Positions 22,939 to 55,084 of a DNA stretch of 64,000 nucleotides are shown here, piece after piece. Location: the IMG/VR virus record IMGVR_UViG_3300027801_001493, positions 55,028 to 119,027 of that record; one strand, 5' to 3'. Numbering within the stretch: the stretch's first letter is position 1; each line of letters opens with the position of its first letter. The DNA is from a virus. Below the pieces are notes generated by a model. It was not told the DNA's origin. It was given only the letters and a program-made list of their open reading frames with translations, and did not search any database. The translations under genes were made by a program, and so were the position numbers.

Positions 22939-22968
22939 AAAAAAAAGCCAAACTGTAAAGTCTGGCTT
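22939..22968 (-). terminator. Intrinsic terminator
   Basis: AAGCCAGAC-TTTACA-GTTTGGCTT then T6. Confidence 0.7.
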
Positions 22969-50735: not shown

Positions 50736-51160
50736 GAATGAAAAGGACCTTTCTTACGAAGTTGAATTTGTAGTTTCGCCTTCACAAGTGCATGTTTCCT
50801 AGTTTTTCTTTTATCTTTCATCCATTTAGTTCCAGTAGGTTCGTACTGTCGTTGAGCTCCGGAGGCTTCCATATCACGTACTTGTTTGCTCCAACGCTTC
50901 TTCGCTTGGTCTTTCATACGCTTTCTTTTCTGACTCGGTTTCTCAAAATATTGTAGTTTAGACATAGTTTTTTGGAACTCTGCTTTTTCTAAACGCTTCT
51001 TCAATATTCTTAATGCTTTACCAACATCACCATTTCTAACTTCTACACCTGGTTTATAGGCGTCAAGATAGTGTGGCTCTACTCTTGGCTTGTCATCACG
51101 TTTTCTAGAATTAAAATCTCTAGTGAACGTTTTATTATTGTTATCTCGATTATAACTCAC
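50732..51160 (-). CDS. rpsU: 30S ribosomal protein bS21 with N- and C-terminal extensions
   Basis: VEVRNGDVGKALRILKK...YFEKPSQKRKR core; GTG start with GAGGT SD. Confidence 0.82.
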   Translation of the reverse strand: MSYNRDNNNKTFTRDFNSRKRDDKPRVEPHYLDAYKPGVEVRNGDVGKALRILKKRLEKAEFQKTMSKLQYFEKPSQKRKRMKDQAKKRWSKQVRDMEASGAQRQYEPTGTKWMKDKRKTRKHALVKAKLQIQLRKKGPFHS

Positions 51161-52421
51161 TTTTACCTCTAAGTTTAATTTTATAGTGTCTATCAATTTC
51201 ACTATTGCCGTTAGTATACACAAATATAGGATGCAAGTCAACCGTTTTAGGATACTTATTAAATATCACTTGTTGCACATTATCCTGTCTTAACATTGGA
51301 GCCCTAAACATTATATTGTGTAAACTGTTTTCTACAATGCTTTTTAATCCTCTCGCTCCAACTTTTTTCGTTACAGCAATCTCGGCAACGTCTTTAAGAT
51401 ATTGCTCCTCAAACTGTAATTCTATTTCATCTAATTCTAATAATTTTGTTACCTGTGTAATACAACTGGATTTAGCATTAGTAAGTATTCTAAACATATC
51501 ATCTTGATCTAAATCTTCTAGTCCTACAATGTTAGGTAACCTGCCAGCAAACTCTGGAATTAATCCATAGCTGATAATGTCATCATGTTCTACATGGTCC
51601 AGCCAATTTATATCTGTTTTCTTACTGTGAACTTTTTGATTGAATCCTATTGATCCTTTCTTTAATTTTTTGTTAACAATCTTATCTAACCCTACAAATG
51701 CTCCGCCTACTATAAACAATACGTCTTTAGTATCGAATTCAATAAAGTCATCCATACGCTTTGAGCCGTTAGTGGAAATCTTTACAGTAGTTCCTTCTAT
51801 TAGTCTTAAGAGTGCTTGTTGTACACCTTCGCCACTAATATCCTTTGTACCGGTGTTAGACTCACTGCTACGAGCCTTTTTATCAATCTCGTCTATGAAT
51901 ACTATACCCTTCTGTGCTTTTTCTACGTTCCAGTCACATGTATTAAGTAGTCGTTCTATCACACTTTCCACATCTTCGCCAACGTACCCTGCTTCAGTAA
52001 GTGTAGTTGCATCTGCTATAGCAAATGGCACACCTAATTTCCTAGCAAGTGTTTGTACTATAAGTGTTTTACCTGTACCAGTGCTACCTATTAATAGTAC
52101 ATTACTCTTTTCGATACTGTCTTTTTCATCGCTGTAGTAAGTTTTCTTATAATGGTTGTATGCACACACACTTAGAATCTCTTTTGCATACTCCTGGCTG
52201 ATTACATATTCATCTAAGTAATCTTTAATTTCTTGTGGGGTGGGGATATCTTCCAGTTCCATGTCTGGAGTAGTATCGTAATCCTCGTTGATAATTTTAT
52301 GACTTATACTTACACATTCATTACAAATATACGAGTTAGGTCCGGCGATTAGTTTACGCACATCATGTCGTTTCTTACCACAGAAACTGCATTCTAGGTT
52401 ACTATCTTTATTATCGGACAT
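51150..52421 (-). CDS. clpX: ClpX ATPase
   Basis: CSFC/CNEC Zn finger, GSTGTGKT, EAGYVGEDVE, DEIDK, IGF loop, GARGL. Confidence 0.96.
   Translation of the reverse strand: MSDNKDSNLECSFCGKKRHDVRKLIAGPNSYICNECVSISHKIINEDYDTTPDMELEDIPTPQEIKDYLDEYVISQEYAKEILSVCAYNHYKKTYYSDEKDSIEKSNVLLIGSTGTGKTLIVQTLARKLGVPFAIADATTLTEAGYVGEDVESVIERLLNTCDWNVEKAQKGIVFIDEIDKKARSSESNTGTKDISGEGVQQALLRLIEGTTVKISTNGSKRMDDFIEFDTKDVLFIVGGAFVGLDKIVNKKLKKGSIGFNQKVHSKKTDINWLDHVEHDDIISYGLIPEFAGRLPNIVGLEDLDQDDMFRILTNAKSSCITQVTKLLELDEIELQFEEQYLKDVAEIAVTKKVGARGLKSIVENSLHNIMFRAPMLRQDNVQQVIFNKYPKTVDLHPIFVYTNGNSEIDRHYKIKLRGKSEL
51213..51241 (-). promoter_or_regulatory. sigma70-type promoter inside clpX 3' end, upstream of rpsU
   Basis: TTGACT-N17-TATACT. 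Confidence 0.6.
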
Positions 52422-53014
52422 TATTTTGTGGTATACCTCAAGTTATCTGGATCTGGTTTATCATTATCGTCTTTTGGTAATGGTATAGCCCAAAACCCTA
52501 ATGTACGATTAACTTCTTCTTCACTTGTCTTTGTAAGCATATTTAATATTTCTTCCTCAGTATACCCTTCTTTATTGAACTCGCTTTCGGACATAATCCT
52601 TGCGGCTTCAATTAAGTTGTTAGCATTAGCCTTTTCAACTACCGAAGGCTTAACTGCTAAACGTTGTTCTAATTCTTCTATCTTGCTGTTATCTGTCCTG
52701 ACTACGACTCGTTCTGCTCCGGGTACTTTAACAATTCGTTCGACGATTCGCTCGGGTCCTGGGACTTCAACAATTCGTTCTGGTCCGGGTACTTCAACAA
52801 TACGCTCGGGTCCTGGCACTTCCTTTTCGACAATGCGAATTGTCTCCTTCTCGACCTCGACTGGTTTCTCAACTGTGATGATCTTTTCAACTTCAATCTC
52901 CTTAGTAACTATTACTTCTTTAATAACTTCAACTGGGACTTCAACTGGTACTTCTACTTCTACTATCTTTTCAACTTGTTTCTCTATTATAACTTCTTTC
53001 GGCTTGTCATTCAA
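52421..53014 (-). CDS. Repeat-rich ORF, probably the -1 frameshifted C-terminus of 53065..54471
   Basis: Only a TTG start, no clear SD; frame open to 53089 across the A9 run. Confidence 0.65.
   Translation of the reverse strand: MNDKPKEVIIEKQVEKIVEVEVPVEVPVEVIKEVIVTKEIEVEKIITVEKPVEVEKETIRIVEKEVPGPERIVEVPGPERIVEVPGPERIVERIVKVPGAERVVVRTDNSKIEELEQRLAVKPSVVEKANANNLIEAARIMSESEFNKEGYTEEEILNMLTKTSEEEVNRTLGFWAIPLPKDDNDKPDPDNLRYTTK
52700..52990 (-). repeat. Coding repeats: about 27-nt units (EVPGPERIV x3-4) and VEV/EKI repeats
   Basis: Visible in DNA and translation. Confidence 0.85.
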
Positions 53015-53064
53015 GAGTTTTAATGTCTTTTCGTATTTTTCGTTTAAGGATTTAAGACTTTCTT

Positions 53065-54471
53065 CTAGTCTTTTTTTTTGGAGGCGCTTTCAGCCATTGC
53101 TGTAGCGGCATCGTCTGATGCATTTTGTTGTGCTAACCTATCTGCAACTAGTTGTTCTTTTAGATGATTAATTTGCCCTTCCATAAGAGCTCGTTCTTCA
53201 TCATCTTCAACATTCCCCAAATCTTTATTATCCCATGCCTGTTCTAATTCATTTTGTGGAGGAGGTTCTGTTGGTGTAGGTGGTACTGGAGGTCCTTTGG
53301 ACTCTAGATTAATTCCGTGCCTAAGTAATGTTTGGTTAGCCGCAATAATTAATATAACTGCTAATGGATCGAACACAAACACCAGTAACAATATAAACAA
53401 TCGTACTGCTTTATCTAATACGTCTGCACTATCGTCACCGTAAACTAATTGAGCCACATATTTAATAGGCCCAACTTCCTTCTCTAATTCTCTTACTATA
53501 CTTTCGGCTTCAAACTTTTCATCTTTAATTACTATTAAGCCATCGTATATTGTATCAATTTGTTCGTTGTAGTCATCTACTTTAACTAATGCTTGATCTT
53601 GGTCAGCACTACTGCTAGTTCGCAATTTGTTAATTTCTGTATTGGCGTTTTCTATTGTTTTCTGTGCCTGTGCTCTATAATTGTCTATGTTTGATTGTTG
53701 AATGTTTATGTCTGTCTGTGCTCTTGTACGCAAATTATCTTTTTCATCTGCTATAGCATCACGTTCTGCTTTCTGTTCTTGTCTTACTTCGTTTGCTTTT
53801 GCAACATTGTCAACTGTTTCTGTTTCAGCACTTCTAAATAAGCCGCCAGCATCTGTTTCTGTAGTAACAGTTCCTTGGCTCGCATAACTGTTTACAATGC
53901 TATCTAACGGTATTAGTTTATCATCTTGTGCTTTGAGATCAATAACTAGTTGGTCTCTTACACTTTGGATTTGTCCTTGTGCATAGTCAATGTCACCTTG
54001 TACTCTTTCCCAAGCACCGTCTCTTATATCTTCCTGTTGTTGTATACTTGAACTAACATCCATACCATCACTATTAAGGAAGTCGGCAATACGGTCTTCA
54101 AGTATTGAAATTTTGTTTTCTTCTCTAGCAACTTTACTTTCTAGTCTTTCGACTATAGCAAATGCATCTCCGCTTTCGCCTGCTTGATCCAAATGTGCTT
54201 TTGAAAGGTATCCAAATATGCCCATTGATGTTATCAACATTAATACTGCTACAGCAACACTTAGATAACTTTTTAATAGTATTCCGGTCTCGTCCCAATA
54301 TCTATACAGCCAACTTGCTGTAAGTAATTTGCCTACTTCTAGTACGCCAGCCATCACTGCTATTGGCATAGCGGCGGCGGAGAAAATACTCATGAGCCCT
54401 ATAATAGAGAACCAAGCGGCTACCCCGGCAATTGCCAAGGCTGTTATTAGTGTTAATATCCCGAATAGCAT
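53065..54471 (-). CDS. Membrane-anchored long coiled-coil protein
   Basis: Three N-terminal TM helices, long coiled coil, TM LLVFVFDPLAVILII, Pro-rich linker. Confidence 0.8.
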   Translation of the reverse strand: MLFGILTLITALAIAGVAAWFSIIGLMSIFSAAAMPIAVMAGVLEVGKLLTASWLYRYWDETGILLKSYLSVAVAVLMLITSMGIFGYLSKAHLDQAGESGDAFAIVERLESKVAREENKISILEDRIADFLNSDGMDVSSSIQQQEDIRDGAWERVQGDIDYAQGQIQSVRDQLVIDLKAQDDKLIPLDSIVNSYASQGTVTTETDAGGLFRSAETETVDNVAKANEVRQEQKAERDAIADEKDNLRTRAQTDINIQQSNIDNYRAQAQKTIENANTEINKLRTSSSADQDQALVKVDDYNEQIDTIYDGLIVIKDEKFEAESIVRELEKEVGPIKYVAQLVYGDDSADVLDKAVRLFILLLVFVFDPLAVILIIAANQTLLRHGINLESKGPPVPPTPTEPPPQNELEQAWDNKDLGNVEDDEERALMEGQINHLKEQLVADRLAQQNASDDAATAMAESASKKKD

Positions 54472-54502
54472 AACATATATTTATCCAAAGCTAAATACTT
54501 AT

Positions 54503-55084
54503 ATGGAACTTAATTGGACACATAATAGAGAACTACAAGAGCTGAAATGCTTTATAAACGACCAACTATGGTACACTACTAATAACGGTGGCAATACTAT
54601 AATTAAACATTATTACGAAGCAGATATTTGTAATCAAACAATACTACAGTTAACAATGGAGCATGATTCTTGGGGTGATGAAAAGTTTTGGCTATCAGAG
54701 AATTATCCAGAGCTAGGGCAATATAACCCTATTGACGTAGCAGATGAATTACAAGAGCAATGGATGGTCAAAAATAACTGGCAATCTGCTATGCCGTTAT
54801 TTGGCATAAGCAGTGATGGTGGATATCTAGACAGGCTTCAACGTACTGATGCTGTACAAGAAGGCATAGACATGACAGCCCACTATCAATCTGAATTAAC
54901 AAAAACTTGGATTGAGAAAGACTCAGATGGTAATTTTTTTAAACGAGAATGGTGTGATGAAAACAATAGTTTTTATAATATTCAGCCTTGTTGCGTATTT
55001 CCAACAAATCCAGGAAGAACACCATTGAGCGATGCAGATGTAAATAGAATAATATCATTAAGTGAAATGGGCCAGCGTTCATAG
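54503..55084 (+). CDS. Hypothetical protein
   Basis: Start revised to MELNWTH after TAAATA motif. Confidence 0.6.
   Translation: MELNWTHNRELQELKCFINDQLWYTTNNGGNTIIKHYYEADICNQTILQLTMEHDSWGDEKFWLSENYPELGQYNPIDVADELQEQWMVKNNWQSAMPLFGISSDGGYLDRLQRTDAVQEGIDMTAHYQSELTKTWIEKDSDGNFFKREWCDENNSFYNIQPCCVFPTNPGRTPLSDADVNRIISLSEMGQRS

Follow-up and report, generated by a model that had tools for sequence, protein, structure and literature searches.

How a reading frame that has no start codon of its own can be translated is the question raised by a junction in the genome of an uncultured marine T4-type phage. We analysed a stretch of 64,000 nucleotides (nt) of this phage, positions 55,028 to 119,027 of the IMG/VR virus record IMGVR_UViG_3300027801_001493, which is referred to here as the window. 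On its minus strand, a membrane-protein gene, o1, closes directly behind a run of nine adenines (A9), and an open reading frame (ORF), o2, continues from the same place in the -1 frame and leads to clpX. The first-pass annotation of the window had proposed a programmed -1 ribosomal frameshift at this run. A comparison of ~120 related loci, collected from IMG/VR with o1 and from metagenomes with o2 and sorted by script, bore out the joining of the membrane ORF to the repeat-containing ORF, but not that the mechanism is necessarily ribosomal. Rather, A9 is probably a conserved and selected slip site that gives two proteins from one gene, mainly by slippage of RNA polymerase.

A nine-adenine run between two stops

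The 3′ end of o1 reads TCC AAA AAA AAA GAC TAG, so that the encoded protein terminates in SKKKD, and its frame closes downstream of A9 at the TAG (53065-53067; all coordinates of the junction, o1, o2 and clpX are window positions on the minus strand). The -1 frame is stopped by a TGA (53090-53092), opens 10 nt before the run and then remains open (53089..52424) until a TAA (52423-52421). Every detail of the run, of the GAC TAG end and of the frame opening that the first-pass annotation had given was reproduced. The stretch open in both frames measures 25 nt in the window and in the relatives L002 and L010 and 22 nt in L125, and it contains the run. Since the shared stretch is only 25 nt long and holds A9, a change of frame is possible only there. 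A one-base slip at A9 would add 216 of the 222 o2 codons to o1 and yield a product of 683 amino acids (aa); by frame reading, the lengths of 468 and 683 aa predicted earlier for the two products are correct.

As had also been recognized from the sequence, o2 has neither an ATG nor a clear Shine-Dalgarno (SD) sequence of its own. The first ATG, GTG or TTG in its frame is a TTG (53014-53012), 25 codons in. This codon is an improbable start, because no SD sequence lies ahead of it and because it falls inside the conserved N-terminal helix of o2.

The run itself is rare. It is the only A9 or T9 of the window, where shuffled sequences lead one to expect 4.5 +/- 2.5, and the only A or T run of at least nine across the whole 119-kb contig (36.9% GC). 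The contig has six A8 or T8 runs, several of which lie directly 3′ of short GC-rich stretches (window positions 22939, 43287 and 61318; position 42082 of contig C1). Those runs look like intrinsic terminators, and other long A/T runs look to be avoided in the contig.

Table 1. Features of the o1-o2-clpX region in window coordinates
Feature	Position	Strand	Basis
o1, gene of the 468-aa membrane protein (short product)	53065..54471	-	ORF list; AlphaFold (AF2) model of homologue L038; ~80 homologous loci
A9 run, proposed slip site	53071..53079	-	conservation in homologues; run count of the contig
Shift window between the two stops	53065..53092	-	ORF frames; overlaps in relatives
o2, -1 frame ORF of 222 codons	52421..53089	-	open frame; homologue alignment; dN/dS
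TTG, sole start-codon candidate near the o2 5′ end	53012..53014	-	frame reading; aligned two-gene homologues
Hairpin, 6-bp stem and 7-nt loop	53054..53072	-	fold z-score; relatives; consensus fold
clpX, zinc finger and AAA+ domain	51150..52421	-	Pfam matches

Three gene layouts, conservation of the run and probable translation of o2

The related loci show three layouts. In layout A (41 loci), o1 and o2 are two genes, and o2, which has its own SD sequence and ATG, uses the +1 frame, with an 8-30-nt overlap at the o1 stop. In layout B (21 loci, 15 of them unique), both parts form one fused ORF of 608-689 aa. In layout C, that of the window (13 loci, 12 unique), a stop follows an A run within 3-4 nt, and o2 occupies the -1 frame without any start codon near its 5′ end. 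Shorter relatives of o1 (384-400 aa) end right after the fourth transmembrane (TM) helix, and both o2 and a neighbouring clpX are missing from them. Among cultured phages none has o2, and the poly-A extension is absent from the homologues in the cultured jumbo phages XacN1, SCTP-2, RsoM2USA and Xoo-sp13 and from that in phage Mosig.

A few loci of layout A consist of three genes, which arose from a duplicated head module of ~75 aa in o2. This module is a helix with the motif ..ALxxLxxKYxxTLxxL.. and is duplicated in L011, L021, L022, L031, L035, L091 and L092, the extra copy being either a separate small gene or a tandem repeat inside o2 (~5500-6300 in L011, L021, L022, L031 and L035). The o2 region resembles a string of modules, freely fused or split.

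Exactly nine adenines are found in the window and in the layout C loci L002/L003/L086, L010, L085, L087, L088 and L089/L090/L093. These sequences come from JGI, ENA and TARA assemblies of different samples, with at least eight independent assemblies among them. Their flanks vary (TCC or GCC before the run; GAC, GGC or GTC before the TAG), and the o1 proteins of the relatives are 65-91% identical to that of the window. In a second lineage, L124 and L125 are just 53-67% identical to each other around the junction, and their ClpX is 51% identical to that of the window. Both carry ACC-A10-TC-TAA, their o2 lies in the -1 frame, and the closest start codon is 255-390 nt off. The A run, the stop and the -1 frame are thus kept in two diverged lineages, and only some of the homologues are single in-frame ORFs. 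A sequencing or assembly error that hides a true A10 and a single in-frame ORF, which the first-pass annotation had considered, would fit the error-proneness of homopolymers on some platforms and the existence of in-frame fused homologues. We reject this explanation as scarcely credible, since the same A9 frameshift recurs, between diverged flanks, in sequences assembled independently in different projects and from different samples; the in-frame homologues likewise have A9, not A10.

One of the A9 loci is of mixed affinity. The o1 core of L010 (4001-6142) groups with two-gene lineages (L119, L120), but the window type is seen in its junction, in its o2 and in its clpX, which is 92% identical. 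This locus looks recombinant.

Through the junction, the slipped product is colinear, residue for residue, with natural single-ORF homologues. The slipped reading of the window, ..AESAS-KKK-RLEESL.., aligns without gaps with ..QESAS-QKK-RLEEAL.. of the fused homologue L007. The window differs from the fused forms by one base missing just 5′ of the run, while the run length is equal. All 15 unique fused forms have an in-frame (C/G)-A9-G at the site, which encodes Q/E-K-K-R, and 13 of 14 have a +1-frame stop 3-12 nt after the run. Fused forms that lost one A or gained two would be truncated, with predicted ends of KKKD, KKKE or KKKERKN, like the KKKD of the window. Two-gene homologues keep a homologous ..DDAAxAMAESA.. 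site, mostly without the run. A run of at least nine adenines is present in all 20 unique forms that lack their own o2 start, as compared to 4 of the 36 with a separate o2.

The run keeps a fixed length. A9 is invariant in 10 unique frameshifted and 15 unique in-frame fused homologues, with A10 in L124 and L125, and neither a length-tolerant pattern nor a scan with the upstream motif alone revealed an A8 or A10 variant of the window-type site. The run includes three positions where A and G are synonymous, all of which are invariant across 20 unique sequences. As a control, third-position A is invariant in only 7 of 35 conserved K/E/Q columns of the same 20 sequences (2 of 12 for K), and the chance of three invariant synonymous sites in a row is ~0.2 cubed, or ~0.008. 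The comparison indicates that codon bias alone does not account for the conservation of the run and of the frame layout among diverged homologues.

This constancy bears on the possibility that the frame was broken by an inactivating mutation or is switched at the DNA level, with o2 silent or expressed only in A10 variants of the genome. Long homopolymers are hot spots of replication slippage, and the homologues that consist of the core without any tail (L054-L080, Mosig) show that o2 is dispensable in some phages. Against this stand the run lengths, which deviate from those of their own clade in none of the 12 unique frameshifted and none of the 15 unique fused sequences; the difference between the frameshifted and fused forms, which lies in the base before the run and not in its length; and o2 itself, which is open over 210-253 codons among the members sharing the shift. 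The ratio of nonsynonymous to synonymous substitution rates (dN/dS) of the whole o2 is 0.12-0.20 at dS 0.26-0.52 in the window clade. We therefore hold inactivation or phase switching to be very improbable.

Between L124 and L125, the dN/dS of o2 is 0.18 at dS 1.06. For the 26 codons between the run and the sole TTG, the ratio is 0.10-0.46, from small counts. These values indicate purifying selection on o2, which extends to the codons immediately behind the run. The conserved N-terminal helix of o2 begins at the ATG in the two-gene forms and directly after the run in the window, upstream of the TTG. As the stretch from the run to the TTG has no start codon, it can be reached solely by translation from o1. 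By these comparisons, o2 is probably translated.

The same evidence speaks to a second alternative, in which o2 is made independently from TTG 53014 or from an internal transcript, A9 is incidental and no trans-frame protein exists. The TTG is conserved in the window clade, the two-gene relatives show that a free o2 is workable, and a sigma-70-like sequence (TTGAAT, 17 nt, TATAAT; 10/12 matches) lies at 53014-52986. However, the TTG has no SD sequence ahead, and the 25 codons upstream of it are conserved, with low dN/dS, and align with the N-terminal motif of two-gene o2 and with the fused forms. The second-lineage members have no start codon for 255-390 nt, the promoter-like matches in the region are at chance level (20 versus 15.2 +/- 4.1), and the invariant A9 of the fused forms would be left unexplained. 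Independent expression of o2 is accordingly quite improbable.

More generally, a promoter and terminator scan of the region gave no matches above chance, and the T4 late-promoter octamer was not enriched and was absent from this region. The sigma-70-like match (52986-53014, minus strand) overlies the conserved KPKEVII codons in the 5′ part of o2 and might serve as an internal clpX promoter or be a mere by-product of coding.

RNA polymerase or ribosome

Taken together, these observations make it likely that recoding occurs at A9, and its mechanism is probably transcriptional. Standard decoding would give the 468-aa membrane anchor, which ends 3 nt after the run. The host RNA polymerase, which T4-type phages use, would slip on the 9-nt homopolymer, so that a minority of transcripts gain one A, and some ribosomes may additionally slip by -1 on A_AAA_AAA. 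Either slip would lead into o2 and produce the 683-aa form, with its helix, flexible V/E/P repeat linker and small C-terminal domain. The in-frame fused relatives would use the site in reverse, with the long form as the default and slippage yielding the truncated form, and the two-gene relatives would produce both parts from separate ORFs. A possible role of the two forms would be to place a clpX-linked module on only some subunits of a membrane assembly.

In the alternative mechanism, RNA polymerase copies the run faithfully and the shift is purely ribosomal, a -1 frameshift on A_AAA_AAA aided by the abutting hairpin. This heptamer, of the X_XXY_YYZ type, stands in 0-frame phase in every frameshifted and fused form, and tailed phages use low-efficiency shifts without stimulators (PMC5009743). 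The hairpin AAGACT-AGAAGAA-AGTCTT, to which the first-pass annotation had drawn attention, is indeed present, and L088 shows one compensatory pair change in it. A stimulatory role was not supported. The hairpin begins inside the run with zero spacer, the region around it folds with ordinary energy (z -0.8), and pairs of the stem are broken in L002, L088 and L089. Among 19 frameshifted and fused sequences, no consensus structure emerged on either side of the run (-3.1 kcal/mol, compensatory pairs absent). We consequently discarded the hairpin as a conserved stimulator, and with it any other RNA structure.

An SD-like stimulator is also missing: no GGAG-like sequence occurs within 20 nt upstream of the run, where the sequence is GCC TCC or GCC GCC. 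Moreover, the heptamer would suffice for a ribosomal shift, yet exactly nine (or ten) adenines are kept, including two positions outside the heptamer. In bacterial transcription, runs of nine A or T slip without helpers (PMC5009743; PMC4256274). The A9 fixed beyond the need of the heptamer (A10 in the second lineage), together with the lack of stimulators, favours RNA-polymerase slippage, and a purely ribosomal shift appears unlikely.

Several points weigh against the view that A9 is a selected site of transcriptional slippage. All of its support is comparative, and transcriptional and ribosomal slippage are indistinguishable by sequence alone. AAA, GAA and CAA are the preferred codons (68-80%) in these AT-rich genomes, so that part of the conservation of A9 comes free of cost. 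When corrected for kinship, the link between gene architecture and the run is reduced to five contrasts, of which ~4 agree in direction and none points the other way (sign test, p 0.125), and recombination, as in L010, blurs the tree behind these contrasts; the association after this correction is suggestive, not conclusive. Finally, the four homologues with a separate o2 that also hold an in-frame A9 in the o1 tail imply that the run is not strictly tied to a start-less o2.

The membrane protein, its neighbour clpX and known recoding systems

The o1 protein has three TM helices at its N-terminus. A long hairpin of antiparallel helices separates these from a fourth TM helix, and a Pro-rich linker leads on to a helical tail. 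The o2 part adds the conserved helix and V/E/P-rich repeats, among them three copies of EVPGPERIV; its small C-terminal domain is helical, contains a GFWA-PLP motif and has a basic C-terminus. In the AF2 model of the natural fused homologue L038 (mean predicted local distance difference test score, pLDDT, 70.6), the arms of the hairpin are ~50-110 residues long each, with a small beta tip and pLDDT above 90. The fourth TM helix is followed by the disordered Pro-rich linker, a junction helix, the disordered V/E/P repeats and the small helical C-terminal domain. The residues encoded by the run lie mid-way in one continuous helix (406-447, pLDDT 80-89). With four TM helices, the o1 tail and o2 share the side of the membrane on which the N-terminus lies; by this model, o2 would be cytoplasmic if the N-terminus is cytoplasmic. 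At the hairpin tip (window 53830-53900, o1 residues ~190-215), a nearly invariant G..GG.F falls in the predicted small beta hairpin.

Searches of Pfam, PHROGs and NCBIfam with o1, o2 and the fused homologue returned no match above threshold. A tetraspanin identity for o1 was rejected (17.5 bits, Pfam cut-off 32.1), as was DUF4407 (12.3, cut-off 31.3), scored in L124. A profile search of PDB sequences returned coiled-coil noise only, a Foldseek search of the L038 AF2 model against the PDB gave no match at E <= 0.001, and the ESM Atlas gave unnamed viral clusters only. The best named relative of o1 is in Pelagibacter phage Mosig, of the family Kyanoviridae. Identity of the phage with Pelagibacter phage HTVC008M was rejected, since the published bS21 peptides differ from the S21 of the window.

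Downstream, o2 is always followed by clpX, and then in the window by a bS21 homologue; queD is among the neighbours. The last A of the o2 TAA is the first base of the clpX ATG (52421-52419), in the form TAATG, and in 36 of 46 unique junctions, taken over all layouts, the stop and start overlap by 1 or 4 nt. SD-like AGGT motifs are present in the 3′ end of o2, and clpX has SD-like sequences of its own. In Salicola phage SCTP-2 (L152, 3004-6061), an o1 homologue, gp195 (365 aa), lies directly upstream of clpX (gp194), with a clpS homologue as gp192. As SCTP-2 is a distant halophilic jumbo phage, the pairing of o1 with clpX extends well beyond the marine T4-type phages. The constant adjacency of o2 and clpX, their frequent overlap and the SCTP-2 arrangement make a functional link of the o1/o2 protein to ClpX likely. 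Between o1 and queD, an ORF of ~194 aa (window 54500-55084, plus strand) without a Pfam match interrupts the minus-strand block.

In the window (52424-52480) and the aligned C-termini, the GFWA-PLP motif is invariant and is followed by an acidic linker and then by a conserved basic peptide (..LRYTTK, ..KRYIGKK). This peptide may resemble the C-terminal ClpX-binding peptide of the adaptor SspB. The suggestion of the first-pass annotation that the slip rate tunes ClpX synthesis is possible but not supported: the overlap of stop and start is common to all layouts, and clpX has its own SD-like sequences. A more elaborate proposal, which we consider doubtful, is that A9 sets the isoform ratio both ways (in-frame forms mostly long, frameshifted forms mostly short), that o2 acts as a membrane-tethered ClpX adaptor or docking site by means of its flexible acidic linker and conserved basic C-terminal peptide, and that the slip rate sets the amount of ClpX through the coupling of the o2 stop to the clpX start.

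So far, most phage recoding sites are known from genes for tail chaperones or capsid proteins, with a few elsewhere. The first-pass annotation had noted that the present context is not the usual one of a tail chaperone. The genes around the site, queD, clpX and bS21, and the four TM helices of the protein bear this out. The A9 site sits in a widespread, uncharacterised membrane-protein family of abundant marine T4-type (pelagimyophage-like) phages, beside clpX, and the pelagimyophage literature mentions neither clpX nor any frameshift. It is a putative recoding site of a known type in a gene family without a published case. For annotation, this means that gene callers will either overlook o2 or list it as an ORF that is truncated or has no start.

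The likeness to the G/GT genes of tail assembly chaperones is one of outcome. There, too, a conserved phage recoding site yields a short and a C-terminally extended product in a fixed ratio, by a -1 frameshift (Xu, Hendrix and Duda 2004, as cited in PMC6375957 and PMC5009743). In contrast, the A9 site does not lie between tail tube and tape-measure genes, the gene and its role differ, the product is a membrane protein with four TM helices, and the slip site is a homopolymer of 9 nt instead of a heptamer.

The dnaX genes provide examples of both mechanisms. In Thermus thermophilus, transcriptional slippage at an A9 gives two dnaX products with a common N-terminus; the number of adenines and the shared N-terminus are as in the phage. 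In Escherichia coli, an A-rich heptamer does the same job at the ribosome, through a -1 frameshift on A_AAA_AAG (reviewed in PMC5009743). Unlike the phage A9, the E. coli site requires an upstream SD-like element and a downstream stem-loop, neither of which was found here, and in dnaX the shift yields the shorter product (gamma).

Intragenic A/T runs are likewise read through by RNA-polymerase slippage in Shigella mxiE, spa13, mxiA and spa33, at efficiencies of 15-55%, and in Buchnera and Blochmannia, whose AT-rich genomes retain poly(A) tracts (PMC5009743, PMC4256274). The endosymbiont tracts mostly rescue decaying genes, whereas the phage tract is the only one of its contig and is conserved both in and out of frame.

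The closest analogue is the pair tssM1 and tssM3, for which slippage was demonstrated to be transcriptional (PMC4256274). In Citrobacter rodentium, tssM1 is out of frame behind an A11, slippage restores the frame in ~20-25% and gives the full-length protein, and both forms and their ratio are required for function (Gueguen et al. 2014, PMC4256274). In Yersinia pseudotuberculosis, tssM3 is in frame with its poly-A run, and slippage gives the short form (PMC4256274). The proteins have no relation in sequence or fold to o1 and o2, the run is A11 there and A9 or A10 here, and a bacterial host gene studied by experiment is set against a T4-type phage gene known through sequence comparison. As in the phage family, however, the gene encodes an inner-membrane protein, the poly-A run stands a few bases before a premature stop, an extra A restores the long form, and an out-of-frame ortholog, in which a slip gives the long form, exists next to an in-frame ortholog, in which a slip gives the short one. 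The phage family differs in having the third layout of two separate genes. The same two protein parts thus occur in three natural states, as separate genes, as a fused gene and split by a frameshift at an invariant A9, and this three-way comparison makes it directly testable why a fixed short-to-long ratio matters.

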